From positions 1-61,112 of IMG/VR virus record IMGVR_UViG_3300032116_000195: 61,112 bases of DNA; one strand, 5' to 3'. Each line of letters begins with the position of its first letter. Position 1 is the first letter of the stretch. The stretch comes from a virus (Duplodnaviria > Caudoviricetes). Below are positions 184 through 61,112 of this stretch, piece after piece. The notes beneath the pieces were generated by a model. That model was given only the letters and a program-made list of their open reading frames with translations, was not told the DNA's origin and searched no databases. The translations under genes and the position numbers were made by a program.

Positions 184-1017
184 ATGAAAAAGACAAAACT
201 ATTCAACAACCTGTCCCCCGAACTGATCGCTAAAACCAAACTCAAGCCGGGAGAACAAGTTGTTTACAGGGTTAGCGGCATTACTCCGCATCCTATGGAC
301 CCTACAAAGTGGGCTATCCCATCAGCAAAGAATGTTCCGCCAATGGATCAAATATGGGACGAAGCTAAAAATGATTACGTAGATATTGCTGCTGTAAGGG
401 CGGTAGATGCTGAGGGCAACCATACGTTCCATGATCTTTATTTCTACGGCAATCAAGGCGGACACTTGGTTTTATATGGTGGCCGTGCAGTGGATCAGGA
501 AATTCACTCATACCTTACTCTGTGCAACTATAATGGCTCTAACCCAAACAGAGATACGTCTAAAGAGATTGTATTTGAACTGGTGGATGAGGCTGTGAAG
601 TCTGAGAAGGAAAGCAAGAAGCGTAACATGAAGAGGGAAGCTCTTAATGCTGCAGCTGACTTAAGCCCAGAAGAGGTACGTAACTACGTTGCTGCTCTTG
701 GGCAAGATGATACAAGAAAGATTGAGATACTCAGGAATTACCTAGAGGAGCTGGCGGACAATGATCCAGCAACATTCCTCGATCTTATCAATAACAAACA
801 AGCCGTTATGAAGGCCACAATCAATAGAGCTATCACCAAGGGTGTTATCAATTTTGATGCTGAGCAATCCAAGTTCTCTTGGCCTAACGGAGAGGCTATC
901 CTTACCACAGCCAGAACAACTGGTGGTGATGCCGTTGACGAGCTACTTAGCTATTGCGTGAGCTCAGCCAAGGGTGAGAAGGTTTACCAAACTATTCAGT
1001 CAAAAGCTAAAAAATAG
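184..1017 (+). CDS. Hypothetical phage protein downstream of capsid gene (possibly virion-associated)
   Basis: 277-aa ORF with an A-rich leader, flanked by terminators. Confidence 0.7.
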   Translation: MKKTKLFNNLSPELIAKTKLKPGEQVVYRVSGITPHPMDPTKWAIPSAKNVPPMDQIWDEAKNDYVDIAAVRAVDAEGNHTFHDLYFYGNQGGHLVLYGGRAVDQEIHSYLTLCNYNGSNPNRDTSKEIVFELVDEAVKSEKESKKRNMKREALNAAADLSPEEVRNYVAALGQDDTRKIEILRNYLEELADNDPATFLDLINNKQAVMKATINRAITKGVINFDAEQSKFSWPNGEAILTTARTTGGDAVDELLSYCVSSAKGEKVYQTIQSKAKK

Positions 1018-1041
1018 TCTCTCTTAGTTTGGTTTGTTTGC

Positions 1042-1068
1042 GGCCCGGGTTTCTACTCGGGCCTTTTT
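1042..1068 (+). terminator. Intrinsic terminator
   Basis: ggcccgggt-ttct-actcgggcc then ttttt. Confidence 0.8.
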
Positions 1069-1121
1069 CATATCCTCTTTTTCCGCCTTCTGCATAAATA
1101 GTTTTGGAACTTTGCGATACT

Positions 1122-4100
1122 ATGCCTAGTGTACCAAGTATATCATTTAATGTCAGGTTCGACCTGACTGGTGCCCCCTCGCTTCTACTTACAGATACTA
1201 CTACATATCCTGTCGGAGCCATCGGCATCTTTACAGTCACACAGCCTGATGGTTACGTAAGAACTGGTAATTTTGCAACTCCTGACGTGACCAGTTCGGG
1301 GGGCACTTTTTCTACTAACCTTAGGCTTAGTTCTACGGGCGGTGTTCAGTGTGGTACATATACGATTCTATACGAGATCAAGACCACAGACGATGTGGTC
1401 AGTACATTCACTAGGAGCTTTGTATTTCAGTATGTTCCTGTCGACTTAGTTCTGACTGAGAACTTTGATGTATTTACCCCGAACCTTTCTTATTCCGACA
1501 GCACCAACTATTCTGTTTCTGGATACAATAACACTGCGCCAACAAGAGCTTGGACTGCGGTAAGTATTCCTACAGGAACCAAGACTAGTACAACTTCAGC
1601 TATTAACCTGCAGCATAGCGGAAACTACTACGATGCTGTCTATACTATTACACTTGCTTCTACGCTGACATATTCACACCAGACCTATGCTTGGCTTAGT
1701 GTTCTGGAGACAATCAGCAAGACCGTTACTGCTGAGGCTTGTACTCCCGAGCCGATCGAGGATCTGATTCCTTTGATTGAGGTTCTCAGGCAGCAGTCTA
1801 TTGAATGCAATGGCGACTTCCCTGACTTCGAGAAGGCTCAGACTTTGTTCAGTCATCTGACTGATATGCTGAGAGTTTTGCTGCTCGGGGGAGTAACTCA
1901 GCAGGGCATTTACGATGTATATGAGGATCTACTTGTTATACTGCGCAATGGCCAGTCTATACCGTGTGTCCATACAAATCAACCAATACCAGCATACGAT
2001 CTTGGAGACTATGCGGTTTCTCAATTTCCTATTGATGCTGCGTACTGCACGACTGTAGGCGATGGCGTAAATACTATATACAGTGTTACACACAACCTGA
2101 ATGACGACTGTGTTCTGGTTCAGGTATACGAGGTTACCAGCGGTGCTCAGGTTCTTACGGATGTGACTATCACGAGTAACAACTCAGTAAATGTATCATT
2201 TGCTACTGCTCCGGCTAGCAACGCCTATAAGGTTGTTGTTCATTCCGGTAATGCAGGAATGGTTGGTCCCGGTGTTGAGGCAGGCGGTACTGTAGGTCAA
2301 TTCCTGAGGAAGCAGTCCACAACCGACTACGACACATATTGGGATACTCTTGATGCTGCGGACATTCCAGATATTAGCGCCACATATTTATCTAAGGCTG
2401 TATACGATATCGACAATGATGGTATTGTTGACGATGCAGAGAAGATTACAATCATAGGAAGAAACAGTACTGGATCTACGATACACAAGGGAAAGATTGT
2501 TTACCTGCAGGGTTCTACAGGCAATAGGCCAAACATTATTTTGGCACAGGCTAATACGGAGGCTTCTTCTAGCAAGACCTTTGGTGTTGTTGTCGATGAT
2601 ATCGCACATAATGCTGATGGTCAGGTAGCTGCTATAGGTACGTTGCACGACTTGGATACAAGATCGGGGGCCCCTAATCCATTTACGACTGACACACTAC
2701 TTGACGGTGATAAGATATGGTTATCTGCAACTAACCCGGGTTATGTAACTAAGACTCCTCCAACACAACCGAACCATACGGTATTCATAGGTTTTGTTGC
2801 TAGGACTAGTCCAACCAATGGCAGGATAATCTATAACATACAAAACGGATTTGAGCTTGATGAGCTTCATAATGTGCTTATAAGTTCTGCAGCCGATAAG
2901 GATATTTTATACTATGATTTGGCTACTGGTCTTTGGAAGAATACTACCAAGGCAGGATGGCTCGGGGGGAGCGCATCACAGTTTGTAAAGGGTGACGGTA
3001 CTCTGGACAGCATTACATATTTAACAACAGAAACAGATCCTGTATTCACAGCGCATCCTGCCTATGGAATCACAGGTACTAAGATATCAAACTGGGATGA
3101 TGCCTATACATGGGTATCCAACTTCCCAACACAAACAGGTAATGCAGGTAAGTTCTTGACTACAGACGGGAATACGCTTTCGTGGGCAAATGTTGTCAGC
3201 GGTGTATCTTCATTCAACTCCCGAACTGGCGCAGTAACACTTACATCTGCTGACGTTACCGGAGCATTAGGATATACTCCTGTTACCAATGCAAGGACTC
3301 TTACTATAAACGGCACTACCTATGATTTAACAGCGGATAGAAGCTGGACAATAGGTGGGGTTGGCACTGTTACCTCCGTTGCTCTAACTGTCCCAACAGG
3401 CTTAGTAATTACAAGTGGCTCACCTATAACAACAAGCGGAACGATAGCCGTAGGGTTGCAAAGTGGTTATTCTATCCCTACAACAATAAAGCAAGGTAAC
3501 TGGGATGATGCTTATACTTTTGTTAGTGGCTTCCCTTCACAGACAGGCAATAGTGGTAAGTATCTTACAACTGATGGAAGTACTTTGTCATGGGGTACTG
3601 TATCAACTGCCAATATCTATAACTCAGACGGTACACTGACGGGGAATAGGACGGTAGGATTAGGTGGGAATAAATTATCTATTGGAACTGCAACAACAAG
3701 TTTTGTTGCAGGTCAGCTTGAATTAGGCGTTAGCAATGCAGGAGGAAGTTTTGTTATTCACAATAGTAATACATTAGGAAGAGGTAGTATTTTTTATGGA
3801 GCAAACTCTAGGTATATGGAAATTGGTATGGCAGGAACATCTCTTGCCTTACCAGTTAATGGTGGAGCATTTATCCATAACCCTTATGCAAATCTATACT
3901 TTACTGGAGGTGGTAGTGCTCAACCAAGTACTTCAGATGTTATAATGACACTGTTCCAGTCCACTAAAAATGTAGTAGTAGGCGGCACAACAGACGCAGG
4001 TTTCAAACTTGATGTGCAGGGGACTGCGAGGGTGAGTGGGGGATTAACAATAACTACTGCATTTGGTTTAAATCTTTCTGCTGCTGCATCGTATTTGTCA

Positions 4101-6482
4101 TTCAACTCTACAACATTACTAATTGGCGATGCAGCTTCTTTAATTGGTGGTGGTACTGCTGGATTAGGACTAAGAGGTGCTGCTCAAGTTTTTGGAGATG
4201 GAGGTACAGGATTTCATTATTTTACGAGTAACTACGCTTTATTTTCAACGCAAAGTGCAGCAGTTAATTTAAGTATTGGCATTCCTGCAAGTGCAGTTCT
4301 TGAGGCTCGTTCCACCACCCGTGGCTTCCTCCAACCTCGGATGACGGGAACGCAGAGAGATGCCATCGTGTCCCCTGCTACTGGTCTCTCCGTATACAAC
4401 ACTACAACTAATACAAGCGACTTCTATAACGGCACATCGTGGGTGAGTCTTGCAGCGGGTAATATATACACTGCTGATGGAACGCTGAATGGAAATAGGA
4501 CTGTGACAAGTGGTGGTTTTAATCTTACATTCACAGGTAGCAATATTGCATCAGGTGCTATTGCGAGAGGATTGAATCTTACTCATACACTTGTTGCTGC
4601 TGCGAATAATGATGTACTTGTAGGACTTGATATTAATCCTACGTTTACTAATGGTGCTTTTACTGGTGTACAAAATATTGGATTAAGATTAAATTCTAAT
4701 TCGTCTGGCACAACAGAAAATCTGCAACTATATAATGCAAACAATGGTGGAGGTAGTGCAACTTCAATAAGATTTAGAAATGGATATACAGGTTCAGGTC
4801 AAGGAGTTATTTGGAGTGCAGTAGATTTTGTTTTTGCAGCAGGAGGTGGTGGAAATTTGTTATTGAAAACCAGTACTGGTTTAGGTGTAGATGCTACGAC
4901 AAAAATGACTATTGGGACAAACTCAATAACATCCAATTCTGTACATTCTTTTTCATCAGGAATATTAGGTGATTTAAATGTTTACGTTGGCTCTCAAGGT
5001 GACCCTGTTGCTGGTACAAGGAAAATAATGACATCAACAGTATCTGGTAGTTTTGCGACTCCAGTTGCATCTTTAGCTATTGGTAATTCTTCAAGTCTTT
5101 CTGCGAATCTTAATGCTTTTGGAGTTTATATAAACAATACTGCAACAGTATCAGGAACTGGGGCAAGGTATAATCTATTCGCAGTTGGTACATCTCTTAA
5201 CTCTTTAGAGGGTAATACAATCATTGGCGGCACGGTTGACTCAGGTTTTAAACTTGATGTGCAGGGCACAGGGCGGTATACGGGTCAAGTAAATATAATA
5301 GATTCATCTGCAACAAGTGTTACTGGATTGTCTATGTTTGGTGGAACTTTTACTATTGCAAATAGTGGAGGTTTTAGAGTATTAAACTTCACCAATGGAG
5401 CAATAACAGTAACAGGAGGAAACCCTTTTGTAATATCAAATAATGCAAGGATAGATATATACTCTACTGCAACAAATTCTCCAGTAAGATTAGGTAGCGG
5501 TACTGCACATATTGAGATTACAAACAATAATTTAGTTGATAAGATAACTTTAAAACCAAGTTTATGGAGGGCTGATACTCCACAATATTTAGATATTGTT
5601 AGTAATGATGCTTCGGCTTCATTTGGACAAAGAAGCGGTAGTATAAGAATATTCACAGGCGAACAAGCATCTACTAATGGGTACGGATATATTGTTCTTG
5701 CTCATAATGGTACTGCACAAAGGGGTACTGTTGCGATAGGAGCAGCTACAACTCATGCATCTGCTATACTTGATGTTGCTTCTACGACTCAAGGCTTCCT
5801 TGCTCCACGAATGACCTCTACTCAACGCTCAGCTATCTCTACCCCAGCTGTTGGTTTAGTGGTCTATCAAACAGATGCTACAGAGGGACTCTATCAGTAC
5901 CTATCAACAGGATGGGCAATCATTGGCGGTTCGGGAGGTGTGACAGACGGAGATAAAGGAGATATTACAGTTAGTGGTAGTGGTGCTACATGGACAATTG
6001 ATAACACTGCTGTCACTTATGCTAAAATTCAGAATGTAGCAGCGAATAGTTTCCTTGCCAATGTTACGGGTAGTGCTGCAACAGTTCAAGAGATAGCTAC
6101 TAATAGGATACCACTTTTCTCATCTGCTATCACAGGTACACCATCGGCTACAACATTCTTGAGAGGTGATGGCAGTTGGGCAACACCATCAGGTAGTGGT
6201 GGAGGAATCACAAGGTCAGTAAACAATATCTCTACTAACACTACGGCAGGTGCTGCTGCGAATACTGACTATGTTTATCTGATTAGTGGAACTACAACTT
6301 TAACTCTTCCGACTGCCGTAGGTAATACAAACAGATACACTTTAAAGAACGTAGGAACAGGAACGGTAACTATCAATACAACATCATCACAAACCATTGA
6401 TGGTAGCACATCCATCACAATGGCAGTAAGATATACTGCTTTGGATGTCATCTCTGATGGTACAAATTGGAATATTATTTAA
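1122..6482 (+). CDS. Large modular tail fibre/structural protein (about 1786 aa)
   Basis: G/T/S-rich beta-type sequence with repeated motifs NIYxxDGTLxGNRTV, GFKLDVQGT, STTxGFLxPRMT and FPxQTGNxGKxLTTDG; ATG at 1122 preferred to TTG at 1104. Confidence 0.8.
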   Translation: MPSVPSISFNVRFDLTGAPSLLLTDTTTYPVGAIGIFTVTQPDGYVRTGNFATPDVTSSGGTFSTNLRLSSTGGVQCGTYTILYEIKTTDDVVSTFTRSFVFQYVPVDLVLTENFDVFTPNLSYSDSTNYSVSGYNNTAPTRAWTAVSIPTGTKTSTTSAINLQHSGNYYDAVYTITLASTLTYSHQTYAWLSVLETISKTVTAEACTPEPIEDLIPLIEVLRQQSIECNGDFPDFEKAQTLFSHLTDMLRVLLLGGVTQQGIYDVYEDLLVILRNGQSIPCVHTNQPIPAYDLGDYAVSQFPIDAAYCTTVGDGVNTIYSVTHNLNDDCVLVQVYEVTSGAQVLTDVTITSNNSVNVSFATAPASNAYKVVVHSGNAGMVGPGVEAGGTVGQFLRKQSTTDYDTYWDTLDAADIPDISATYLSKAVYDIDNDGIVDDAEKITIIGRNSTGSTIHKGKIVYLQGSTGNRPNIILAQANTEASSSKTFGVVVDDIAHNADGQVAAIGTLHDLDTRSGAPNPFTTDTLLDGDKIWLSATNPGYVTKTPPTQPNHTVFIGFVARTSPTNGRIIYNIQNGFELDELHNVLISSAADKDILYYDLATGLWKNTTKAGWLGGSASQFVKGDGTLDSITYLTTETDPVFTAHPAYGITGTKISNWDDAYTWVSNFPTQTGNAGKFLTTDGNTLSWANVVSGVSSFNSRTGAVTLTSADVTGALGYTPVTNARTLTINGTTYDLTADRSWTIGGVGTVTSVALTVPTGLVITSGSPITTSGTIAVGLQSGYSIPTTIKQGNWDDAYTFVSGFPSQTGNSGKYLTTDGSTLSWGTVSTANIYNSDGTLTGNRTVGLGGNKLSIGTATTSFVAGQLELGVSNAGGSFVIHNSNTLGRGSIFYGANSRYMEIGMAGTSLALPVNGGAFIHNPYANLYFTGGGSAQPSTSDVIMTLFQSTKNVVVGGTTDAGFKLDVQGTARVSGGLTITTAFGLNLSAAASYLSFNSTTLLIGDAASLIGGGTAGLGLRGAAQVFGDGGTGFHYFTSNYALFSTQSAAVNLSIGIPASAVLEARSTTRGFLQPRMTGTQRDAIVSPATGLSVYNTTTNTSDFYNGTSWVSLAAGNIYTADGTLNGNRTVTSGGFNLTFTGSNIASGAIARGLNLTHTLVAAANNDVLVGLDINPTFTNGAFTGVQNIGLRLNSNSSGTTENLQLYNANNGGGSATSIRFRNGYTGSGQGVIWSAVDFVFAAGGGGNLLLKTSTGLGVDATTKMTIGTNSITSNSVHSFSSGILGDLNVYVGSQGDPVAGTRKIMTSTVSGSFATPVASLAIGNSSSLSANLNAFGVYINNTATVSGTGARYNLFAVGTSLNSLEGNTIIGGTVDSGFKLDVQGTGRYTGQVNIIDSSATSVTGLSMFGGTFTIANSGGFRVLNFTNGAITVTGGNPFVISNNARIDIYSTATNSPVRLGSGTAHIEITNNNLVDKITLKPSLWRADTPQYLDIVSNDASASFGQRSGSIRIFTGEQASTNGYGYIVLAHNGTAQRGTVAIGAATTHASAILDVASTTQGFLAPRMTSTQRSAISTPAVGLVVYQTDATEGLYQYLSTGWAIIGGSGGVTDGDKGDITVSGSGATWTIDNTAVTYAKIQNVAANSFLANVTGSAATVQEIATNRIPLFSSAITGTPSATTFLRGDGSWATPSGSGGGITRSVNNISTNTTAGAAANTDYVYLISGTTTLTLPTAVGNTNRYTLKNVGTGTVTINTTSSQTIDGSTSITMAVRYTALDVISDGTNWNII

Positions 6483-6499
6483 CAATAAAATTATAAACA

Positions 6500-8509: not shown

Positions 8510-10417
8510 ATGAAGGTACTATCGGATATACTACATAAGGCTGGGATACTTAAGGATAATGCTGAGGGTTACAGCTCGGGGGGATATTCAGTATTGGTAA
8601 GAAACTCTACGACCCAGAGACTAGAGACAGTATCTTCATCTGTATTTACAAACATATACAACTCTAATGGAACTCTTTCTGGCAACAGGTCAGTAACTCT
8701 TGGCGGAAATAATCTTGACATCGTAGGATCTACTACTACGAGATTTGCATCAAACGGTAATGTTATTATTGGCGGTACTACTGATGCTGGCTTTAAGCTA
8801 GATGTTAATGGAACTGCTAAAATTAATGGGGACTTAACTATAGGATCTATTGGTAACCTTGTGACAACAAATCAGTTTTACGGTAGGGCTACCAATTTTA
8901 CCAACGGAATCTTTGTAGGTTGGGACTCCTTTGCTACATACCTTGGATATCAGATGGGTGCAACGCCTGTACACATAGGTACTGGAGGTACAGGAGAGGT
9001 TTTGTTTAGGAATACTGGAGGCTTAAAGGTTGAGTCTTTTGCAGGTGTTGGATCGAGGATGGTGGTTACCGACAGTACGGGGGCGTTGTCTACGCAGGTT
9101 TTACCTACTAGTACAAATATCTACAACAGCGATGGCACACTGACTGGGAATAGAACAGTGACGCAAAGTGGCAATTATCTAAATTTTGTAGGTGGAAGAG
9201 TATCTGTATATGGAAGTGCTGGAAATGAAGGGTTATTTGAAATAAATTCGTCTATTTCAAATGGGAATGCAAGTTTAAGTTTTTACGAAAATCCGGATGG
9301 AACAAGTAGGCAATATGGTTCAATAATTAGATTCGTTGGTAGTGACAACACATTAAGATTTATATCAAAAGATGTTACAGAAGGAGAATATCACAGACAA
9401 AGTTTTTCTTTATCTACATTTAAATCAAGTTTGGGTGTTGGTTCACTTCACACATTTGGGTCAGCTATTCAAGGGGTTTTTGATGTTTATGGTACACCAG
9501 CAGCGAATGGTATATTGGGTTATTTGCGAAGGTCAGGTGCAGGTGATGTGATGTTAGGTTTTTCGCAATGGGGAGGAGGAGCAGGTTATGCAATAGGTTC
9601 TATAAGCGGTGGAGGTTTTGGATTTTACAATGATAGGTGGACAGGTGGAGCAGGAACAGAGGTTGCAAGGTTTTCCACTTCAAACAATTTTTTAATAGGT
9701 ACTGCATCAGATACTGGCCTATACAAACTTGATGTGCAGGGTACGGGGCGGTTTACGGGAATGATTACTGGAAGGGCTACAATGTCTAATACACAAACCT
9801 CCACTGATTATGCTATACAGCTGAATGGTATTTCAACAACTGATGCTACAACAAGACAATTGATTAGTCTTGGAAGCTTAGGTAGTACTGGAATATTATA
9901 TGGAGCAATAGGAATTACTGCAAACTTGACAGATAATTCTGTTGGTACTTGGATTTTTGCAAATGGTGCTAATACAATAGGGCATGGTGTAGTAGCTGAT
10001 TCTGGAACTGCAACAGTAGATGCTTTTATGGCAAGAACTAATGGTCAAGGTACTGGAGGTTCTATTGGTTATGCATGGAGGGTTGGAAATTCAACACATT
10101 ATAATTTTAATGTTTATAATGATGGTACATATTATAATTTAAGATTATTTAATCGTACTGGAATAATAAGTTACATCAGAGATAGGGATACTACTAACAT
10201 AACATTTGGTTCTAATACATACTATGCGTCTGCACAAGTAGCAATAGATTCCACTACAAAAGGCTTCCTTCCACCACGAATGACAGGAGCACAGGTAGAG
10301 GCTATATCATCTCCAGCTGAAGGGTTGTTGGCTTATGCAACGAACGCTGGTTCGGGGGCTGTAACAAGCTCAGGATGGTGGGGGTACAACGGAACAACAT
10401 GGGTTAAGTTAAATTAA
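8510..10417 (+). CDS. Second modular tail fibre protein
   Basis: Shares NIYNSDGTLTGNRTV, GFKLDVxGT and STTKGFLPPRMT modules with 1122-6482. Confidence 0.8.
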   Translation: MKVLSDILHKAGILKDNAEGYSSGGYSVLVRNSTTQRLETVSSSVFTNIYNSNGTLSGNRSVTLGGNNLDIVGSTTTRFASNGNVIIGGTTDAGFKLDVNGTAKINGDLTIGSIGNLVTTNQFYGRATNFTNGIFVGWDSFATYLGYQMGATPVHIGTGGTGEVLFRNTGGLKVESFAGVGSRMVVTDSTGALSTQVLPTSTNIYNSDGTLTGNRTVTQSGNYLNFVGGRVSVYGSAGNEGLFEINSSISNGNASLSFYENPDGTSRQYGSIIRFVGSDNTLRFISKDVTEGEYHRQSFSLSTFKSSLGVGSLHTFGSAIQGVFDVYGTPAANGILGYLRRSGAGDVMLGFSQWGGGAGYAIGSISGGGFGFYNDRWTGGAGTEVARFSTSNNFLIGTASDTGLYKLDVQGTGRFTGMITGRATMSNTQTSTDYAIQLNGISTTDATTRQLISLGSLGSTGILYGAIGITANLTDNSVGTWIFANGANTIGHGVVADSGTATVDAFMARTNGQGTGGSIGYAWRVGNSTHYNFNVYNDGTYYNLRLFNRTGIISYIRDRDTTNITFGSNTYYASAQVAIDSTTKGFLPPRMTGAQVEAISSPAEGLLAYATNAGSGAVTSSGWWGYNGTTWVKLN

Positions 10418-11924: not shown

Positions 11925-12441
11925 TCTCCTCCTGATCGGATGCGATCCTGTCAAGCGTGTTCTCAGGGATGAGACCAAGTTTGATGAGGTGGCTCAGGAA
12001 ATGGTAAGGCGTGGATATTGCGTCAACGATACCATCGTTGTAACAAAGGTAAAAGATAGTGTAGTCTATAAGGACTCTATTGTACAGAAACTAGTTAACG
12101 TCCCTTGCAAAGATTTCGATACTACTATTGGAAGGGCACGAATTAAGGTCAGCTCGGGGGTACTCACATACACAGCAGCTGACTCTGTAGTCATACGCAA
12201 GGAAACCATAACCAATACTGTTAGAGACAGAAAGCTTGAGGATATTCTGAAGAAGGATATCTCATCCAGAGACCAGCAGATCGATTCACTGAAGTTGTCT
12301 GTTCGCAGTTCGCAAACTGAGAACAAGGAATTAAAGGCAGATCTAAGATGGTTCCAGATAAAGTTCTGGGCATTGTTTGTAGCGGCTCTGGTAATAATAT
12401 TTCGTAAATCTCTAATAAGATTAGTCGGTGGCTTTATTTAA
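11890..12441 (+). CDS. Lipoprotein with C-terminal TM helix (unimolecular spanin-like)
   Basis: MKLKYLSVIVISLLLIG-C lipobox and C-terminal FWALFVAALVIIF. Confidence 0.55.
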   Translation: MKLKYLSVIVISLLLIGCDPVKRVLRDETKFDEVAQEMVRRGYCVNDTIVVTKVKDSVVYKDSIVQKLVNVPCKDFDTTIGRARIKVSSGVLTYTAADSVVIRKETITNTVRDRKLEDILKKDISSRDQQIDSLKLSVRSSQTENKELKADLRWFQIKFWALFVAALVIIFRKSLIRLVGGFI

Positions 12442-12706
12442 AGTTTTTGCAGCGAAGGACGGTAATCATGCTTGGGCCGCAACTGGGACTAATCCAAAGA
12501 CTGGTCGGGAGATTACTCTTAAAGGCGGGGAGGCTAAGCATCGTGGCAAGTGGGGGACCAAGGGCGGCAAGACTGAAGGTCAGGTTAAGAGCTACTTCGC
12601 AAGACACGCCAAGAACGACAGCCCTAAGGGATATATAAATGATCTTAACTGGAAGTTAGGATCTCGAATTGGCAAAACGGTGAACATACCTAATAATAGA
12701 TTCTGA
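12428..12706 (+). CDS. Small basic phage protein
   Basis: 92-aa K/G-rich ORF coupled to its neighbours. Confidence 0.55.
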   Translation: MALFKVFAAKDGNHAWAATGTNPKTGREITLKGGEAKHRGKWGTKGGKTEGQVKSYFARHAKNDSPKGYINDLNWKLGSRIGKTVNIPNNRF

Positions 12707-20615: not shown

Positions 20616-20618
20616 AAG

Positions 20619-46760: not shown

Positions 46761-47101
46761 TACACTACCATAACAGACCTCATCATCGTTAAAATTTTCT
46801 CTGTGCTGAGTAGTTCTGATGAGTCAACAATGCGTTTACAGAGGTGATCATAAAGATCGGCATAATCATCGATATCTCGATATCTATTTGGATGATCTTT
46901 GAGGTGGTGAATAATTGTCGTATGGTGAAGGTTCAGTAAACCCCCGATCTGAGTGATAGTTCGGGAGTGATACCTTCTCATGACGTTAACAATGGCGCAC
47001 TTGATGTTGATGATCTCCCGTCTGCGAGATCTTGTGTAGGTAATGTCAAGACCAGTAAAATCTTTTGCCAGTTCAACAAGTTCTTTAAATTTTTGATCCA
47101 T
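46760..47101 (-). CDS. DnaA domain IV-like HTH protein
   Basis: RSRRREI...TITQIG..LN.HHTTIIH resembles the DnaA C-terminal DNA-binding signature. Confidence 0.7.
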   Translation of the reverse strand: MDQKFKELVELAKDFTGLDITYTRSRRREIINIKCAIVNVMRRYHSRTITQIGGLLNLHHTTIIHHLKDHPNRYRDIDDYADLYDHLCKRIVDSSELLSTEKILTMMRSVMVV

Positions 47102-47328: not shown

Positions 47329-47561
47329 TAGTAATAAATTTTAACGTAATCTCCGACCACTTCAAAGGTGATCCGAAGGTTCTCGAAATAGAGACATCTA
47401 CCCATGTACTGCTGGGTATAGAAACCGATCTTGGGTTCTTCATCTCTTTGGCAGATGAGTTGCAGTTCCCCCGATGGTTCGGGAGAACTGAACCCATCCA
47501 GTCCCCAAGAGAATGACACTCCATCTTCGATTCTACTCATAATCTGTCGAAACTTTGTCAT
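47328..47561 (-). CDS. Hypothetical protein
   Basis: 77-aa ORF in the operon. Confidence 0.5.
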   Translation of the reverse strand: MTKFRQIMSRIEDGVSFSWGLDGFSSPEPSGELQLICQRDEEPKIGFYTQQYMGRCLYFENLRITFEVVGDYVKIYY

Positions 47562-48041: not shown

Positions 48042-48160
48042 GGTTTTGTATGTTCGGATATTCCCCCGAACTGGGTTAAAAGTTGCCTTACCTTTTCCCC
48101 TAATTCCATATTGTTAGGGGTGTCTAAGATTAGTTGTACTGGGACAGCGATATAGTCCAT
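48014..48160 (-). CDS. Small hypothetical protein (48 aa, not in ORF track)
   Basis: MDYIAVPVQLILDTPNNMELGEKVRQLL...; starts just after the tRNA-like gene. Confidence 0.45.
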   Translation of the reverse strand: MDYIAVPVQLILDTPNNMELGEKVRQLLTQFGGISEHTKPCTQEKEDQ

Positions 48161-48560: not shown

Positions 48561-48594
48561 AAAAAACCCCTTCAACGTAGACACGTTCGGGGGT
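48560..48594 (-). terminator. Intrinsic terminator ending the early small-gene operon
   Basis: Minus strand acccccgaacgt-gtct-acgttgaaggggt then T7. Confidence 0.75.
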
Positions 48595-49100: not shown

Positions 49101-49120
49101 TGGTGTGTGGTTTAGTGAGG

Positions 49121-49164
49121 AACTGGCGGTGATATCGCTTCACCTTCGGCCTTTCCTGCCAGTT
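49121..49164 (-). ncRNA. Anticodon-less tRNA-like element A
   Basis: aactggc/gccagtt 7-bp stem plus ggtga-agcgata-tcacc 5-bp arm. Confidence 0.7.
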
Positions 49165-49173
49165 CGGGGGTAA

Positions 49174-49567: not shown

Positions 49568-49586
49568 GTGTGTGTGTTTTGATGAG

Positions 49587-49634
49587 GACTGCCTCGCCTA
49601 ACGAGGGCGAATGATAGCGGTCTATCGGGCAGTT
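49587..49634 (-). ncRNA. Anticodon-less tRNA-like element B
   Basis: actgcc/ggcagt stem, gatag-accg-ctatc hairpin and tcgcc-ctcgtta-ggcga arm. Confidence 0.7.
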
Positions 49635-49642
49635 CGGGGGTA

Positions 49643-50036: not shown

Positions 50037-50056
50037 GTGTGTGTGTTTTGATGAGG

Positions 50057-50098
50057 AACTGAGGGCAGTATCGCTCTGCCTTATCCACTCTCTCAGTT
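50057..50098 (-). ncRNA. Anticodon-less tRNA-like element C
   Basis: aactgag/ctcagtt stem, D-loop-like gagtgg and ggcag-agcgata-ctgcc arm. Confidence 0.7.
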
Positions 50099-50105
50099 CG
50101 GGGGA

Positions 50106-50345: not shown

Positions 50346-50365
50346 TTTTGTGTGGTTTTGATGAG

Positions 50366-50411
50366 GACTGCCTCCTGTCACGAACAGGATGCCATCAGAA
50401 TGGGGGCAGTT
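50366..50411 (-). ncRNA. Anticodon-less tRNA-like element D
   Basis: actgcc/ggcagt stem, ccat-tctg-atgg hairpin and tcctg-ttcgtga-cagga arm. Confidence 0.7.
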
Positions 50412-50418
50412 CGGGGGA

Positions 50419-50860: not shown

Positions 50861-50876
50861 CGTGTGTGGTTTTGAT

Positions 50877-50921
50877 TGGGAACTGAGCAGGGAATCGAAC
50901 CCTGCTTACAACCATTCAGTT
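50877..50921 (-). ncRNA. Anticodon-less tRNA-like element E (canonical T loop, encoded CCA)
   Basis: aactga/tcagtt stem, atggtt D-loop-like segment, gcaggg-TTCGATT-ccctgc, then C-CCA. Confidence 0.75.
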
Positions 50922-50928
50922 CGGGGAC

Positions 50929-51643: not shown

Positions 51644-51700
51644 AGTGTGTTTCGCCATTCTGTGGCTCATCAGTTCGGGAGAAATACCCGAAGACACACT
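51644..51700 (-). ncRNA. Hammerhead ribozyme, type III
   Basis: agtgtg TC ttcggg-tatttct-cccgaa CTGATGA gcca-cagaa-tggc GAAA cacact. Confidence 0.93.
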
Positions 51701-52495: not shown

Positions 52496-52585
52496 GTGGT
52501 TAGATTTGGGAGGCGGAAAATACATTACAAAATACTCCCATGATTACGTGATTTCCCGTAATGAAAGTGGGGCAGTTCGGGGGCA

Positions 52586-52909
52586 TCAAAGCCTCTTATT
52601 AAGTAGATACCTACGTATAGCAGACAAGTACTCCCGACCAAGAGGAGCAAGAGAAAGTTTATAGTCTTGTATATGTATAAGAGAGAGGGAAGAGAGAGTA
52701 TTAACCGAATTGTATAACGCCCCAACACTAATTGGATGTCCCATTCGTTTGGCATGGCGTTGAACTCCAGACTGACGGATGCCTTCGGGAAGGTATGCAA
52801 TGGAGTATAGGACAAAGATATCACTGGCCGAAAGTTCTGGAAGGTCGAACCTTCGAGATACTTTGATAATGGCAGAGGGCATGAGAAAAATATACTTATT
52901 CAACTTCAT
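52586..52909 (-). CDS. MarR-like winged-helix protein
   Basis: LSASDIFVLYSI...ALYNSVNTLSSLSLI...LSLAPLGREYL. Confidence 0.55.
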   Translation of the reverse strand: MKLNKYIFLMPSAIIKVSRRFDLPELSASDIFVLYSIAYLPEGIRQSGVQRHAKRMGHPISVGALYNSVNTLSSLSLIHIQDYKLSLAPLGREYLSAIRRYLLNKRL

Positions 52910-54006: not shown

Positions 54007-54144
54007 ATGAAGAATAAGTTAGGTGTTAAGAATAGCTTAGTGAATAACATTAATGCCAAGAAGAAGGCAGGAACCTCTAAGCCTAAGAGTAAGTCTACAG
54101 TAAGTAAAGAAGCCTACGACAAGATGAAGAAGGGCTGGAAGTGA
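54007..54144 (+). CDS. Small basic protein (45 aa, not in ORF track)
   Basis: MKNKLGVKNSLVNNINAKKKAGTSKPKSKSTVSKEAYDKMKKGWK*; GTGA overlap with the next gene. Confidence 0.6.
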   Translation: MKNKLGVKNSLVNNINAKKKAGTSKPKSKSTVSKEAYDKMKKGWK

Positions 54145-54392
54145 AAAGGCACGTCAAGATTTACTTGGATTACTATGGCTATACTGGCGATGAGTTTATT
54201 AGCTGTGAGGTCTGTGGCTCCCGAGCTGTTGACATTCATCATATTGATTGCAGGGGTATGGGCGGCAGCAAATCTAAAGACAAGATCGAGAATTTAATGG
54301 CCCTTTGTAGATCCTGCCATCTTGAGTATGGCGACAAAAAACATTACATTGAGTTTCTTACTGATATTCACAAAAAAGTAGTACAAAAGTAG
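54141..54392 (+). CDS. HNH endonuclease
   Basis: CEVC..DIHHI...NLMALCRSCH. Confidence 0.85.
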   Translation: MKRHVKIYLDYYGYTGDEFISCEVCGSRAVDIHHIDCRGMGGSKSKDKIENLMALCRSCHLEYGDKKHYIEFLTDIHKKVVQK

Positions 54393-55144: not shown

Positions 55145-55696
55145 ATGGTTTCTCCAACTAAGATTCTTATCAAGGTTAAGAAGCGATTTCAAGATGAGGT
55201 CGACTTCAATGGCGGTAAGATGTATATAGATCCGAGCTACCGTCCAGAGTGGAATGCATTCCCTTACGGAGAAGTCCACTCAGTTCCTTTACGCAATCCT
55301 TTTATCTCGGACGACTTCCATTGTAATGTTCAGGTTGGCGACAGGCTTTACGTCAACTATGTGGTCCTGACGGACGACTCCAATCATGTTGATGGCGACA
55401 TCTGGTGTGTTGACTATTATATGGCACTGGCTGCTGTTCGGGGGGATAAAGTTATTCCTGTTGGAGAACACATATTGATTGAGCCGATAGTAGAGGAGAA
55501 GAAGAGTACGATAGAAATACCAGAGATGTCCAAGAAAATTGTGGTGAATAGGGGTAAGGTATTCTCATCCAACGATCCGGAAATTCCGAACGGTTCAACT
55601 GTAAGCTTTGAGCATGTTGGGATGTTTGAAAATGAGATTGAGGGTAAGAAGCTCTTTGTAATGTATAACTCAAACATACTCTGCATACATGAATAA
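55145..55696 (+). CDS. GroES-like co-chaperonin (tandem domains)
   Basis: VQVGDRLY and IPVGEHILIEP...EIEGKKLFVM pattern. Confidence 0.6.
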   Translation: MVSPTKILIKVKKRFQDEVDFNGGKMYIDPSYRPEWNAFPYGEVHSVPLRNPFISDDFHCNVQVGDRLYVNYVVLTDDSNHVDGDIWCVDYYMALAAVRGDKVIPVGEHILIEPIVEEKKSTIEIPEMSKKIVVNRGKVFSSNDPEIPNGSTVSFEHVGMFENEIEGKKLFVMYNSNILCIHE

Positions 55697-56104: not shown

Positions 56105-56608
56105 ATGCTAGACTGCCAGACACCAAACGGAAAAAAGTTCATAAGTCACCAGCTAAGGACACAAAGGCTCCTAGAAAAAAAGGGGTATAAGTTCTTTAAC
56201 ATGTCATCAGACTCGTCAAAGGCTGATGTCCTGATAGCCAAGGAAGTTGAAGGAATGTTTGTACTGTGTGGAGTTGCCGAGATTAAGAGCCGTGAGATGG
56301 CTGGTAGTGTACCGCTGACTGTAGAATATCTCAGATCCAATGGCGGATATCTAATAACAAACGACAAGCTACTGTACGGATCTGATGCAAGTCAACTCTT
56401 TGGTGTACCATTTTTTATAATTGTCAACTTATTAATTGACAAAAAGATCCTGATCTGGAAAGTTACTGACGATCAGGGTCTTTATCTGTTTGACTTTGAG
56501 ACTAAGAATACGTCAACGCAGATGACCTGCAATGGCGGAACGATAACCAGACCAAACTCCTTCCTGCCTGTAGACAAGGCGACTATAATTGAGTACGAAG
56601 AATACTAA
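56105..56608 (+). CDS. PD-(D/E)XK-like nuclease
   Basis: ADVLIA...AEIKSR. Confidence 0.55.
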   Translation: MLDCQTPNGKKFISHQLRTQRLLEKKGYKFFNMSSDSSKADVLIAKEVEGMFVLCGVAEIKSREMAGSVPLTVEYLRSNGGYLITNDKLLYGSDASQLFGVPFFIIVNLLIDKKILIWKVTDDQGLYLFDFETKNTSTQMTCNGGTITRPNSFLPVDKATIIEYEEY

Positions 56609-56963
56609 CAGGATAGGGGATACCGCTGAGTTCCTGTTTGATGCCAGAGCGGTACAGAGGGGTTTTGTCGTTAACAGGCCAATACATTCTGGTACTATAT
56701 ACGACAGGGTTATTGAAAGTGGCGGTAAGTTCTTTAAGGTTCAGATCAAGTGTCTAACTAAGAATCATCACCGTGGTGGTGTTATAGTAAATCTAGTCAG
56801 AAAGAACAATGACAGCTACCCTACAGATAAGGTTGACGTCATAGCTGTTTACCTTCTTCACAGAGATAAGTGGCACTTCTTTAAAAACACAGGAAGTAGA
56901 AGTATATATATAGGTAGGAAGGATAAACAAGAAAACTGGGACATATTCTATGAGGAGGTTTAA
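56589..56963 (+). CDS. PD-(D/E)XK endonuclease (PDDEXK_5-like)
   Basis: IGDTAE...YDRVI...KVQIK...Y...VDVIAVY. Confidence 0.7.
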   Translation: MSTKNTNRIGDTAEFLFDARAVQRGFVVNRPIHSGTIYDRVIESGGKFFKVQIKCLTKNHHRGGVIVNLVRKNNDSYPTDKVDVIAVYLLHRDKWHFFKNTGSRSIYIGRKDKQENWDIFYEEV

Positions 56964-58491: not shown

Positions 58492-59053
58492 GATGGAATT
58501 TGACCCAACTGTCAAGAAATCCTTGACAACTGTATATCCTAAACTTAAGGATATCGTTGGTTCGGGGGATGACAAGATGTTGAGATATGTATTATTAATG
58601 TACGATGTCAACAGTCCACTACGTCAAAACTATCCTGAGCTTGGTAAAAGAAAACAGTTTGCTGCATCGATGGCCGGATATGATTTGGCTAAGGATGATG
58701 TAACTGCTCTGTTTGATTTTAAGATCAATGAAGAGCCATACGAGGAATTGCTAGATATGATCATCAATTACCTAAAGTACCAGAACAACTGGGTTTGGGC
58801 GATGATCGTCAGCAATGAGCAGGCATTCTTTGAATACAATAGGAGGGTAATGATGCCAGTTGAAGGTAATAGGGATAAGGATATCCTTCAGGCCATCAGC
58901 ATCAAGACACAGATCATGAACTCACAAGACGAGATATATCAGCGCCTACTGAAATACTATCGAGACCTGAGCGGTGGAGACGCATCGCTTGAGGAGTCAA
59001 TCACCACAAGAAAAAGGTTAAGACCGGAATCAATAGCAAATGGAGTTGTATAA
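58478..59053 (+). CDS. Putative terminase small subunit
   Basis: Helical 191-aa protein in the position upstream of terL; function inferred. Confidence 0.4.
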   Translation: MDYTKMEFDPTVKKSLTTVYPKLKDIVGSGDDKMLRYVLLMYDVNSPLRQNYPELGKRKQFAASMAGYDLAKDDVTALFDFKINEEPYEELLDMIINYLKYQNNWVWAMIVSNEQAFFEYNRRVMMPVEGNRDKDILQAISIKTQIMNSQDEIYQRLLKYYRDLSGGDASLEESITTRKRLRPESIANGVV

Positions 59054-59654
59054 AAAATGTTCGACCTGTAAAGTGACTTTTAGTATTACCGATTTTAATA
59101 AAGATCGTAGAACTAAAGATGGCCATACGCCTCAGTGTAGGTATTGTAGGATAAAGGCAAAAAAGTTACACTACGATTCAAACAGGGAGAGAATATTGGC
59201 TGACAAAAAGAAAGAGTATAAAAAAACAGCTGATAAACAGAGAGCTAGAAGCATCAAATACTACTACGATAATAAAGATTCAGTAAGGAAAAGGCAAGCT
59301 AAATACCTGAAAGAATACAGATCTAGGGATGAGAATAGAATAATTCATAATGTAAGATCGAGGGTAAGATTTGTTTGTAAGGGTATTGAGTTACCCAAGA
59401 CAAAAATGAAATATCTAGGATGTACTGGTAGTGAGTTAAAGGCATACTTAGAAAGTCAGTTTATAGAAGGAATGACTTGGGATAATTATGGTACTGTTTG
59501 GCATGTTGATCATAAACTACCTCTGTCTTGGATAGATGTATATCATGAAGGAGATAGGTCGTTTGCGTTTTCATACAAGAATTTGCAGCCAATGTTTGCT
59601 GTGGATAATATTAGAAAAGGAGGAAGAAGGGCAGATGTTCAATCCAATAGATAA
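59040..59654 (+). CDS. HNH homing endonuclease (Zn finger plus endonuclease VII-like domain)
   Basis: CSTC..CRYC and WHVDHKLPLS...NLQPMFAVDNIRKG. Confidence 0.8.
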   Translation: MELYKKCSTCKVTFSITDFNKDRRTKDGHTPQCRYCRIKAKKLHYDSNRERILADKKKEYKKTADKQRARSIKYYYDNKDSVRKRQAKYLKEYRSRDENRIIHNVRSRVRFVCKGIELPKTKMKYLGCTGSELKAYLESQFIEGMTWDNYGTVWHVDHKLPLSWIDVYHEGDRSFAFSYKNLQPMFAVDNIRKGGRRADVQSNR

Positions 59655-61112
59655 CGGATCTACAGAAGAGATTCAGGGTCTTGTCTGTAACCTTCCGCCA
59701 GCCGGAAAGGTTTACAATGTTTTGACTGGACAGGTTGAACCAAGGCTGATACTATCAAGATCTCCCAAAGCAAAAGAACAATACTGGGAAACAGTTAAGC
59801 TCCCTAAAGATTATGTGAAGCTAAGAGAAAAGGAGACTGCCAGACAGATGGAAGATAAAGAGTTCTTCGATCCTGTACTAGAGCAGTTTAGAACTGAAGA
59901 GTGGGACAGGAGACTAAATGGAGTCTGGTTCTATAACAATGGCGTTCCAACCTATCTAACAGGCTTACACTACTTCTACTTAAACTATTGGAATCTAGAT
60001 ACTGGCGTACCAAAGTACAGGGATACAGACAGGAAGTACTTCTACTTCTTGCAGTACTGTATAGAAGACCCTGAGTGTTTTGGTATGGTAGAGATTACTA
60101 AACGTAGGCAGGGTAAGACATTCAGGGGTGGAGTATTCCTCTACGAATATACCTCTAGGACTAAGAATGCAAGAGCAGGTGTACAGTCCAAAACTGGCTC
60201 GGACGCCAAGGAGGTTTTTCGTAAAGCAATAATCCAACCATTTAAGAAACTACCCGACTTCTTTGTTCCGGTGTACGATCAGTCAAAGGGATTGACTCCA
60301 ACATCAGAGCTTAGGTTTTTTAATACGGTAGTAAAAGGTAAGAAGGCTGCCAGCATTTTGGACGAGGATGAGCTGGAAAGTATGATCGACTGGAAGTCAT
60401 CAGATGCTATATCGTATGACGGTCAGAAGTTGCAAAGATACTTAGGTGATGAGGTTGGTAAGACGGCAGAGATAAATGTGTGGGAAAGATATCTGGTGAC
60501 TAGGTATTGTCACTTGGATGATGAAGGTAAGATCATAGGTAAGTGTCTTCTGACAACAACAGTCGAAGACATGGAACAGGGTGGTGCGCCTTTTAAGAAG
60601 ATCTGGGATAACTCGGATCATACCAAGAAGACTGGCAAGAGGACTCCTTCAGGATTGTATAGGTACTTCTGTCCATCGGATCATACTAGGTACTACGATC
60701 AGTATGGACTGGCGGATAGAGACAAAGCTCTGGAGGAGATACTGGACGAGAGGAAGCTACTGACAAATGACCCCCGAGCTCTCAGCGCTGTGATCCGTAA
60801 GGAGCCACTAAGTTGGGAGGAGGCGTTCAGGATAGACGGATCTAAATGTCTGTACAACGCCATGAAGCTGAATGAAAGGCTTGACAGGTTAAGCTGGAAA
60901 GAGAACCTAACAACAAGGGGAAACTTTGTTTGGCAGAATGGGGAGAGAGATACCAGAGTAATCTGGGAACCAAACAGGCAAGGACGATGGGAGATTGTAA
61001 AGCTCTTTGATACTGACGAAGAAAGTAACAGGTATGTTAAAAAGGGTGAAAGCTACTACCCGAACAACAGTGGATTTGTAATGGGTGTTGACCCTATCGA
61101 CCACAACCAAAC
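59635..61112 (+). CDS. terL: Terminase large subunit (partial, runs off window; not in ORF track)
   Basis: ATG at 59635; YLTGLHYFYLN, Walker A KRRQGKT, Walker B DEVGK, and nuclease start GVDPIDH at the window end. Confidence 0.9.
   Translation, partial: MFNPIDNGSTEEIQGLVCNLPPAGKVYNVLTGQVEPRLILSRSPKAKEQYWETVKLPKDYVKLREKETARQMEDKEFFDPVLEQFRTEEWDRRLNGVWFYNNGVPTYLTGLHYFYLNYWNLDTGVPKYRDTDRKYFYFLQYCIEDPECFGMVEITKRRQGKTFRGGVFLYEYTSRTKNARAGVQSKTGSDAKEVFRKAIIQPFKKLPDFFVPVYDQSKGLTPTSELRFFNTVVKGKKAASILDEDELESMIDWKSSDAISYDGQKLQRYLGDEVGKTAEINVWERYLVTRYCHLDDEGKIIGKCLLTTTVEDMEQGGAPFKKIWDNSDHTKKTGKRTPSGLYRYFCPSDHTRYYDQYGLADRDKALEEILDERKLLTNDPRALSAVIRKEPLSWEEAFRIDGSKCLYNAMKLNERLDRLSWKENLTTRGNFVWQNGERDTRVIWEPNRQGRWEIVKLFDTDEESNRYVKKGESYYPNNSGFVMGVDPIDHNQ

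Follow-up and report, generated by a model that had tools for sequence, protein, structure and literature searches.

The virus record IMGVR_UViG_3300032116_000195 of IMG/VR, analysed here in full as a window of 61,112 bases, belongs to a phage in which a short asymmetric DNA word, GNTCGGGRG, recurs at 54 sites. Rightward genes fill the first ~35 kb and encode virion proteins, with open reading frames (ORFs) of 1792, 1196 and 3051 amino acids (aa), plus two endolysins. Leftward genes occupy ~35–53.4 kb and comprise small early genes together with a replication and recombination module, which encodes a deoxynucleoside monophosphate (dNMP) kinase, RusA, a T7 gp4-type primase-helicase, an initiator, a RecE-like exonuclease, an Erf-like annealing protein and a tyrosine recombinase. 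The rightward genes resume at 54.1 kb and run to the large terminase (TerL) at the contig end. Relatives of this phage span 61–69 kb, and two of them assembled as circles whose ends overlap by 89 and 127 bases, indicating that the window is near a full genome.

The word and the selection acting on it

Exact copies of TCGGGGG/CCCCCGA numbered 42 in the window (30 on the + strand and 12 on the − strand). An earlier sequence-only reading of this DNA had put the total at about 40, and all 19 coordinates that it listed were among the 42. Dinucleotide-preserving shuffles yielded 2.40 copies (standard deviation 1.62, largest 7), and 0 of 100 shuffles reached 42; the same reading had expected 2–3 copies from base composition. 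TCGGGGG was the top over-represented 7-mer under Markov models of orders 1 to 3 (42 copies vs 1.5–3.3 expected), and the leading 9-mers under the same models were GTTCGGGGG (20 copies vs 0.1–0.23) and GCTCGGGGG (11 copies vs 0.06–0.11). In 39 of the 42 copies a G stood two bases before the T, and TCGGGAG, with 16 copies, was the sole frequent one-letter variant (all other variants had six copies or fewer each). We therefore defined the word as GNTCGGGRG. Within the window, GNTCGGGGG was found 39 times vs once for the word reversed, and the 11-mer CAGTTCGGGGG was present in 11 exact copies. A logo of the 270 sites in six genomes, the window and five whole relatives, read C (58%), A (58%; purine 84%), G, Y (77%), T, C, G, G, G, R (G 72%), G, and was followed directly on its 3′ side by three A/T-rich positions; the full form is thus cAGyTCGGGrG, then A/T. 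Searched as whole words, the four 9-mers had 0 matches across 8.1 million PubMed Central papers and 0.36 million preprints.

Copies were present in coding and non-coding DNA and on both strands, as the sequence-only reading had stated. Among the 42 7-mers, 34 were coding, with 24 in sense orientation (13, 6 and 5 in frames 0, 1 and 2) and 10 in antisense orientation (4, 4 and 2), and 8 were intergenic. The word is built of the rarest codons of their families: TCG makes up 6% of Ser codons, GGG 10% of Gly codons and CGG 5% of Arg codons, and among Pro codons CCC makes up 11% and CCG 14%. When synonymous codons were shuffled within genes, the window retained 12.6 of its 54 sites on average (at most 17 in 200 shuffles), and ~10 of these 12.6 were intergenic sites that had been left unshuffled; the five relatives responded alike. 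Under a codon-pair Markov null, 6.6 sense and 1.9 antisense coding sites were expected (largest in 100 simulations: 16 and 6), compared with 28 and 16 observed, and the gaps to this null were similar in all six genomes. This dicodon null was conservative because it was trained on motif-bearing genes. The enrichment therefore persisted in the very comparison that had been proposed as its refutation, and synonymous, codon and dicodon nulls all fell short of the counts in the six genomes. Because the word occurred in all frames and on both strands, was made of rare codons, exceeded its nulls and turned over from site to site (see below), the earlier suggestion of a DNA site under selection was upheld. 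We concluded that the word is selected in the DNA itself and is not a codon or peptide artefact, a conclusion that is well supported.

Relatives of the window were found through the primase-helicase, which yielded 80 viral loci. All 23 loci with a primase 60–75% identical (guanine-plus-cytosine (GC) content 36–47%) contained 3.4–11.5 sites per 10 kb, and in most of them the word was again the top 7-mer. Of 57 loci with a primase ~40% identical, 56 had no site and one had a single site. The five whole relatives contained 55, 44, 28, 46 and 43 sites, vs 0–3 for the reversed word. As far as tested, the word is private to a clade of ~61–69 kb freshwater phages of probable Bacteroidota hosts, and selection maintains about one copy per 1.1–2.4 kb.

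Within this clade, the word was kept at 38 of 134 aligned positions of relatives that are orthologous to the coding sites of the window. Several sites differed from their orthologues solely by a synonymous change of AGG/AGA to CGG in a conserved Val-Arg-Gly, and therefore the sites turn over while their number is maintained. Coding DNA of the window contained 0.08 sites per kb where no relative aligned (12.4 kb, 1 site) and 1.31–1.55 sites per kb where four to five relatives aligned. This concentration in core DNA accounts for the gap that the sequence-only reading had seen across the variable tail-fibre genes. Its statement that no copy lies in about 3000–8500 held for the 7-mer, but not for the word, which is present there as two GNTCGGGAG variants, at 3218 (−) and 5929 (+).

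The sites were strongly polar. With the late-sense strand counted first, the splits in the six genomes were 35:19, 43:12, 28:16, 24:4, 32:14 and 31:12 (total 193:77, n = 270), and the full 11-mer was more polar still (65:16). Over the six genomes, late genes contained 124 sense and 28 antisense sites (0.56 per kb), the early genes on the opposite strand contained 40 sense and 39 antisense sites (0.84 per kb), and intergenic DNA was split 30:9 for the late-sense strand at 1.67 sites per kb, which is ~3 times the late-gene density. The coding null leans toward sense by ~3.5 to 1. The ratio of ~1:1 in early genes, despite this sense-leaning null, therefore indicated a pull to one absolute DNA strand that opposes coding. 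No polarity switch was found around the circle in the two circularly assembled genomes. When the sites were mapped from the head of the late block, the final tenth (the far early end) held 37 major-strand sites vs 10–26 in each other tenth; the greater density that had been claimed for the early region was thus confirmed. The sequence-only reading had overlooked this polarity independent of gene direction, as it had the R at position 8 and the sharing of the word across the clade.

Minor-strand sites were also far above the null (16 vs 1.9 in the coding DNA of the window). Enrichment of the minor strand argues that both orientations are selected, a pattern that fits a binding site better than a cut in one strand. 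Some opposite-strand sites were close neighbours, separated by 18 bases in the window (46941/46959) and by 12 bases in relative G002 (23752/23764). Major-strand sites had a mean spacing of 1.5–2.6 kb and were spaced slightly more evenly than random (coefficient of variation 0.69–0.91 vs 0.95; single-genome P 0.04–0.37), a weak evenness seen in six genomes that are related and so not independent. Gaps of 6–8 kb also occurred.

A second, weaker word, TGGCG (as ATGGCG, TTGGCG, TGGCGA and TGGCGG), was observed in the window and in relatives G001–G004. It was present at 2–2.7 times its level in synonymous-codon shuffles, in both orientations, and leaned ~1.5–2 to 1 to the strand of the main word; the 7-mer AATGGCG had 26 copies vs ~3.6 expected. 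The word GGYCTCAG showed no enrichment in the window (0–4 copies per strand).

Structured spacers and positions of the sites

In spacers between early genes, the complement of the word forms a leader of five C (C5) and GAAC, the four bases that open a 7-bp acceptor-like stem. The acceptor strand is followed by a linker of 10–12 nt and by a 5-bp hairpin whose loop of 7 nt often reads GGTTCGANTCC, as in a T-arm; the 3′ part consists of the closing strand CAGTTC, CUCA and UCAAAAC, after which the next start codon is reached. By strict criteria, the six genomes contained 14 of these tRNA-like minihelices, three of them in the window, and the leaders confirmed the earlier claim that the word forms the 5′ flank of tRNA mimics. 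Minihelices were present in relatives G001–G003 and G005, and the genes that they flank varied among relatives, as if exchanged as cassettes. They resemble sites at which RNase P or RNase Z would process a polycistronic early message.

The word was also found as a terminator stem (GCCCCCGAACTGGGGGC plus a T run) in relatives G003 and G004, and one variant of it lies in a match to a type III hammerhead ribozyme in the window (Table 1). At gathering scores, the Rfam matches in the window were limited to its two tRNAs. In the spacer 51109–51168 (−), the elements CTGATGAG, CGAAAC and GTC were noted in this order by eye; this spacer, which had no Rfam match, is perhaps a second hammerhead. Because these RNA devices are dissimilar and coding copies occur on both strands, we infer that the DNA word came first and that the spacer elements of the early genes (minihelices, terminators and ribozyme) were built around it.

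Table 1. Copies of the word, structured spacer elements and candidate reader genes in the window
Position	Strand	Feature	Context
215..223	−	word GTTCGGGGG, full 11-mer CAGTTCGGGGG	antisense in ORF 184–1017
1294..1302	+	word GTTCGGGGG, full 11-mer	sense in ORF 1104–6482
1744..1752	−	word GCTCGGGAG	antisense in ORF 1104–6482
1883..1891	+	word GCTCGGGGG	sense
2662..2670	+	word GATCGGGGG	sense
2960..2968	+	word GCTCGGGGG	sense
3218..3226	−	word GTTCGGGAG, full 11-mer	antisense
5929..5937	+	word GTTCGGGAG	sense
8574..8582	+	word GCTCGGGGG, full 11-mer	sense in ORF 8510–10417
10350..10358	+	word GTTCGGGGG	sense
12152..12160	+	word GCTCGGGGG, full 11-mer	sense; retained in 4/4 aligned relatives
12503..12511	+	word GGTCGGGAG	sense
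14294..14302	−	word GCTCGGGAG	antisense
14713..14721	+	word GATCGGGGG	sense
15594..15600	+	TCGGGGG, 7-mer only (without G at −2)	
16551..16559	−	word GCTCGGGGG	antisense in ORF 15429–19019
17848..17856	+	word GCTCGGGGG, full 11-mer	sense
18928..18936	+	word GTTCGGGGG, full 11-mer	sense
19655..19663	−	word GGTCGGGGG	antisense
20259..20267	+	word GCTCGGGGG	sense
23366..23372	+	TCGGGGG, 7-mer only (without G at −2)	3051-aa gene
26306..26314	+	word GTTCGGGGG	sense, 3051-aa gene
29553..29561	+	word GTTCGGGGG	sense, 3051-aa gene
33155..33163	+	word GTTCGGGGG	sense, endolysin ORF 32923–33390
33267..33275	+	word GTTCGGGAG	sense
33631..33639	−	word GTTCGGGGG	sense in ORF 33597–33908 (−)
35739..35747	+	word GATCGGGGG	antisense, early ORF
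36301..36309	−	word GCTCGGGAG	sense, early ORF
36579..36587	+	word GCTCGGGAG	intergenic
37029..37037	−	word GCTCGGGAG, full 11-mer	sense, dNMP kinase ORF; AGG replaces CGG of the word in relatives
39560..39568	−	word GTTCGGGGG, full 11-mer	intergenic
39625..41355	−	candidate reader: T7 gp4-type primase-helicase	576 aa
41092..41100	−	word GATCGGGGG	sense, primase-helicase
42518..42526	−	word GCTCGGGAG	sense, RecE-like exonuclease
42812..42820	+	word GCTCGGGGG	antisense, RecE-like exonuclease
43200..43208	−	word GATCGGGGG	sense, RecE-like exonuclease
43486..43494	+	word GCTCGGGGG	antisense, Erf-like ORF
43912..43920	+	word GATCGGGGG	antisense, Erf-like ORF
45747..45755	+	word GCTCGGGGG	antisense, tyrosine-recombinase ORF
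46233..46241	+	word GTTCGGGGG, full 11-mer	antisense, tyrosine-recombinase ORF
46760..47101	−	candidate reader: stand-alone DnaA-domain-IV-like DNA-binding protein	113 aa
46941..46949	−	word GATCGGGGG	sense, DnaA-IV-like ORF; opposite-strand site 18 bases away
46959..46967	+	word GTTCGGGAG	antisense, DnaA-IV-like ORF
47468..47474	−	TCGGGGG, 7-mer only (without G at −2)	
47477..47485	+	word GTTCGGGAG	antisense
48063..48071	−	word GTTCGGGGG, full 11-mer	sense, small ORF
48585..48593	+	word GTTCGGGGG	intergenic; early-sense strand CCCCCGAAC then GGGG and T run, terminator-like
49116..49170	−	tRNA-like minihelix, ~55 nt	between early genes
49162..49170	+	word in minihelix spacer	C5 leader and first 4 stem bases
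49583..49640	−	looser structured spacer element, same build	approximate ends
49632..49640	+	word in looser spacer element	
50052..50104	−	tRNA-like minihelix	
50096..50104	+	word in minihelix spacer	
50362..50417	−	looser structured spacer element	approximate ends
50409..50417	+	word in looser spacer element	
50876..50926	−	tRNA-like minihelix, GGTTCGATTCC T-arm	leader just four C, not full word
51644..51700	−	type III hammerhead ribozyme match	early-gene spacer; score of 44.4 bits (E 2.6e-7), below the Rfam gathering score of 48.5
51673..51681	+	word variant in hammerhead match	one strand of stem
52575..52583	+	word GTTCGGGGG, full 11-mer	intergenic
52631..52639	−	word GGTCGGGAG	sense in ORF 52586–52909
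54141..54392	+	candidate reader: small clade-conserved HNH endonuclease	83 aa; opens late block
54218..54226	−	word GCTCGGGAG, full 11-mer	antisense, HNH ORF
55436..55444	+	word GTTCGGGGG	sense; Val-Arg-Gly retained in relatives via AGG/AGA, not CGG
56589..56963	+	candidate reader: clade-conserved PD-(D/E)XK endonuclease	124 aa
57470..57478	−	word GTTCGGGGG	intergenic
58560..58568	+	word GTTCGGGGG	sense
60771..60779	−	word GCTCGGGGG	antisense in TerL

Probable hosts and candidate reader proteins

The host is probably a freshwater member of the Bacteroidota, because of the terminase matches, the scarcity of Shine-Dalgarno sequences and the lake and freshwater runs in which the phage was found. 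By tblastn, the large terminase matched 87 phage records, 86 of which were from phages of Flavobacteriia. Only 3 of 87 ORFs had a Shine-Dalgarno-like core, and upstream regions were A-rich, both of which are a habit of Bacteroidota. DNA of the window was present in freshwater and lake sequencing runs from 18 studies, and the 24 public runs consisted of contigs. Those from four runs matched the window exactly or were short pieces of relatives; their ends did not pile up anywhere, although contigs would not reveal such pile-ups in any event. A megablast search with 12 kb had no match among 50,697 phage records. Among 185,579 species genomes there was no close relative; seven primase matches at 28–45% identity provided neither a prophage nor a host link.

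We looked for the word in 401 Bacteroidota species drawn evenly over the phylum. The 9-mer did not exceed ~5 times its reversed control in any of these genomes and was often at ~2 times, on a high background, and the 11-mer reached at most 6.4 per Mb, vs 132–295 per Mb in the phages. The top genome for the 11-mer (G345, 5.5 Mb) contained 35 copies vs 6 reversed; because these copies were dispersed, there was no hidden prophage. Genome G207, which had the highest 9-mer count among genomes of high ratio (449 vs 94), showed no strand runs. Among viruses, the 17-base hairpin form GCCCCCGAACTGGGGGC was found in 19 contig stretches, seven of them in the clade, and the 12 unrelated contigs that shared it had only 1–4 sites each. 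A 17-base piece of the tRNA-like element had at least 120 single matches in genome contigs of unrelated taxa, which is about chance, and gave no clue to the host.

This scarcity in the 401 genomes favours a reader encoded by the phage. The word is moreover identical over a clade whose GC content of 36–47% suggests several host genera, and together with the scarcity this identity tilts the balance in the same direction. Of the functions offered by the sequence-only reading, host Chi and uptake signals were weakened, having no support in the 401 genomes, whereas a binding site for a phage protein appears to fit best.

Proteins found in all five relatives included the 83-aa HNH protein, the 124-aa PD-(D/E)XK protein, the tyrosine recombinase, the primase-helicase, the initiator (41324–41908) and several small proteins; a winged-helix protein (52586–52909) likewise belongs to the clade core. 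The best candidate for a reader would be the protein encoded at 46760–47101. Its family matched Bac_DnaA_C of Pfam with E 3.4e-4, below the cut-off, and 15 of 50 homologues had a Pfam match to the same domain. There were at least 50 homologues (92–124 aa), all on phage-sized contigs of 67 kb or less. In a profile-to-PDB comparison, the four top matches were all DnaA (E 0.02–0.28). An AlphaFold model with a predicted local distance difference test score (pLDDT) of 82.4 was compared by Foldseek, and the top ten matches were all DnaA (DNA-binding domain or whole protein); the top three were the isolated domain, with target template-modelling (TM) scores of 0.80–0.81 and a root-mean-square deviation of ~2 Å. 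The protein is thus predicted to have the fold of DnaA domain IV, which classically reads a 9-bp asymmetric word as a monomer, and it is for this reason that we regard it as the best candidate. The protein has a conserved HHTT.IHH motif and keeps the His-Thr-Thr...His residues that are the base contacts of DnaA. Two homing-type endonucleases (HNH/EndoVII-like; 37795–38547, −, and 59040–59654, +) were excluded as readers, being absent from the relatives. One homing-type endonuclease gene is inserted immediately before the large terminase gene.

Explanations for the word

We think it somewhat probable (about 0.55–0.6, all versions together) that the word is read by a sequence-specific protein encoded by the phage. 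The leading version, which we hold tentatively, is non-cleaving polar binding by a monomeric DNA-binding protein. The word would be an asymmetric docking site for a phage-encoded protein acting directionally on the genome, and the bound monomer would work one way, as a polar barrier or as a loading mark for machines travelling along the DNA. The DnaA-domain-IV-like protein would be the best candidate for the docking protein. It is possible, in wider terms, that the clade has a private 'genome word' system, in which a phage reader (the DnaA-IV-like protein, a nuclease or the primase) binds cAGyTCGGGrG as a one-way mark. This mark might be a polar barrier to polymerases or nucleases arriving from the early-gene end, or else a reloading or priming mark, and the phage would distinguish its own DNA from that of the host by sequence, not by modification.

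Two known systems resemble such a docking site. DnaA boxes are likewise 9-bp asymmetric words read by a single helix-turn-helix domain, and the phage encodes a stand-alone fold of this kind; the word differs, however, from TTATCCACA, and the pairing of word and protein is a candidate only. Stoperators of mycobacteriophage L5, bound by gp71, and the C1 operators of P1 are sets of tens of asymmetric 13–17 bp sites, dispersed over the entire genome, bound by a monomeric phage protein and orientation-dependent in their action. Unlike the word, stoperators occupy short gaps between genes and are oriented with transcription in each genome arm, whereas the copies described here are mostly intragenic and have a polarity independent of transcription.

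Several observations weigh against a phage-encoded docking protein. The counts, the polarity and the clustering at one presumed genome end are much like those of Chi-rich phages (PMC12315714), and a simple binding site alone leaves the strand bias of 2–3 to 1 unaccounted for. DnaA-IV-like homologues were also found in 6 of the 57 motif-free loci. Canonical DnaA boxes were at chance in the window (21 vs 20.2), and the protein at 46760–47101, since it keeps the contact residues of DnaA, may read ordinary host DnaA boxes instead. All genes of the replication module except the primase were equally private to the clade, and gene content therefore singles out no reader. The sample covered 401 species, and a host lineage outside it may carry the word. 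The weak TGGCG word, which has the same strand bias, is left unaccounted for as well.

A more specific version, in which the word is a nick site of the type known from phages tf, T5 and phiKMV, seems doubtful. A late phage nuclease would cut one strand within the word, and the packaged DNA would be interrupted at top-strand sites. The 46-kb genome of phage tf has two convergent gene sets and 14 nicks, all on the top strand, in a 9-nt asymmetric consensus (TACT/RTGMC) with two degenerate positions, at sites common to relatives (PMC3517423). The word has this format (9 nt, two degenerate positions) and is clade-private and strand-biased; the interruptions of tf, T5/BF23 and phiKMV-like phages are similarly phage-private, 9 nt, asymmetric, degenerate, dispersed, strand-biased and common to relatives (PMC3517423). 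Two small nucleases, the HNH (83 aa) and PD-(D/E)XK (124 aa) proteins, are encoded in the late block of all six genomes. In contrast to tf, whose consensus sites are all on one strand, 25–30% of the sites described here were on the other strand (77/270), where they were themselves ~8 times the coding null. Opposed sites lie 12–18 bases apart, and cutting both would break the duplex. The known interruptions number 4–14, are on one strand and stay in place among relatives of tf, whereas the phages of this clade have 28–55 sites per genome, several times more than any described nicked phage, with a quarter on the other strand and with turnover of positions.

A Chi-like signal, in which oriented copies read by a host enzyme of the AddAB/RecBCD type would switch degradation of linear or rolling-circle DNA to recombination, is in our judgement unlikely. 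Phage LLS carries a Chi site every 1.86 kb (23 in all), with 20 of them in one orientation and half in the end 22% of the genome, and P1 and MD8 have 50 and 32 sites (PMC12315714). These Chi-rich phages resemble the present clade in having a short, asymmetric, G-rich top oligomer, about one per 1–2 kb and mostly in one orientation, that is denser toward a presumed end and whose sites come and go at a steady number (PMC12315714). The word, correspondingly, was the most over-represented word, with one site per 1.1–2.4 kb and 71–80% of sites on one strand; its major-strand sites were concentrated in the last tenth of the late-block map, and the terminase and late genes have its G-rich strand as their sense strand. 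In lambda, active Chi has the same relation of the G-rich strand to the late genes, and the Chi of Haemophilus, GNTGGTGG, has the format G-N-T-x-G-x-G-G, as in the word.

However, a host Chi should abound in the host chromosome, at about one copy per 5 kb and with a skew, as it does for the Chi-rich phages, and the word was scarce in the 401 sampled genomes at the levels given above. In G207, the degenerate positions differed in make-up over the first 100 of its 449 sites. The identity of the word across clade members with presumably several host genera also argues against a host signal, and the position of the genome end is itself inferred. The 9–11 specified bases of the word exceed the 5–8 bases of known Chi sequences. 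Furthermore, the phage has its own RecE-like exonuclease, Erf-like annealing protein and RusA, all conserved, whereas in lambdoid phages a recombination module of their own goes with few Chi sites, and the Chi-rich ones lack such a module (PMC12315714).

Recognition or start sites for the T7 gp4-type primase-helicase, read on the lagging-strand template, are an improbable explanation. The lagging template in one-way synthesis of concatemers would carry more of such sites, and the model predicts that both strands are enriched, with one of them moderately favoured. Every member of the clade encodes the primase-helicase, and the gp4 primase-helicase of T7 reads short words on one strand repeatedly. 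The mean spacing of major-strand sites (1.5–2.6 kb) is about the size of Okazaki fragments, and spacing was slightly more even than random in the six genomes, but this evenness was weak, the genomes are related, and gaps of 6–8 kb are tolerated. Known primase words are of 3–5 nt and need no enrichment. The T7 primase starts at a conserved GTC triplet whose 3′ base is cryptic. GTC is missing from the word, and conservation was lowest in its flanking CAG/CTG (58% at both of two positions), contrary to the behaviour expected of a start triplet. Distant relatives with a primase 40% identical had no equivalent word.

A target of sequence-specific DNA modification, or an uptake sequence of the host, is very improbable. 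The dNMP kinase (36705–37244, −; all five relatives) and a glycosyltransferase (57505–58491, +; four of five relatives) hint at modified or glycosylated bases in the phage DNA, but modification gives no reason for enrichment or polarity. The uptake signal sequences (USS) of Pasteurellaceae and the DNA uptake sequences (DUS) of Neisseriaceae have a 9–12 nt core, occur about once per kb in all frames and form terminator hairpins; they are a property of the host genome, driven by uptake, and are not strand-polar. The word recalls them in its density of about one per kb, its use of all frames and its terminator stems, but it is strand-polar, and no sampled Bacteroidota genome had it at an uptake-like density. 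Lastly, there is hardly any chance that the word is a codon or peptide by-product or an RNA-level element: 13 of the 34 coding 7-mers encode Ser-Gly in frame 0 and the complement of the word lies within RNA structures of early spacers, but the word uses all frames, both orientations and rare codons, three nulls fall short of it, messages of late and early genes carry opposite strands of it, and there are 14 strict minihelices vs 270 sites in the six genomes.

Dispersed, oriented genome words are known from few phage systems, namely Chi (in RecBCD-dependent phages), nick sites (T5, tf, phiKMV) and stoperators, and the function of phage nick sites has been unsolved for decades. A whole clade of abundant lake phages keeps 28–55 copies of such a word by selection at the level of DNA and pays for them in codon choice. 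If a phage protein reads the word, the virus would have a means, based on sequence, of marking and handling its own DNA. The case would also be tractable, with a clear word, a short list of candidates and many natural variants. In metagenomes the word is a diagnostic signature of the clade, and within a genome it tells long-resident core DNA from modules acquired recently.

Three other features of the window were noted. The 3051-aa ORF (22040–31195, +) encodes a polyvalent protein with an ADP-ribosyltransferase domain (ART-PolyVal, E 2.7e-15); relatives align over just 7–26% of this gene, and copies of the word in it are few. A call of tRNA-Gly(CCC) at 53412–53503 (−), of 92–93 bases and 31.8 bits, has a 36-base insert in the anticodon/variable region and may be an intron-bearing or degenerate tRNA. 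A clade-conserved protein of 183 aa is encoded at 55145–55696 (+), and its C-terminal half is GroES-like (Cpn10, E 4.2e-6).

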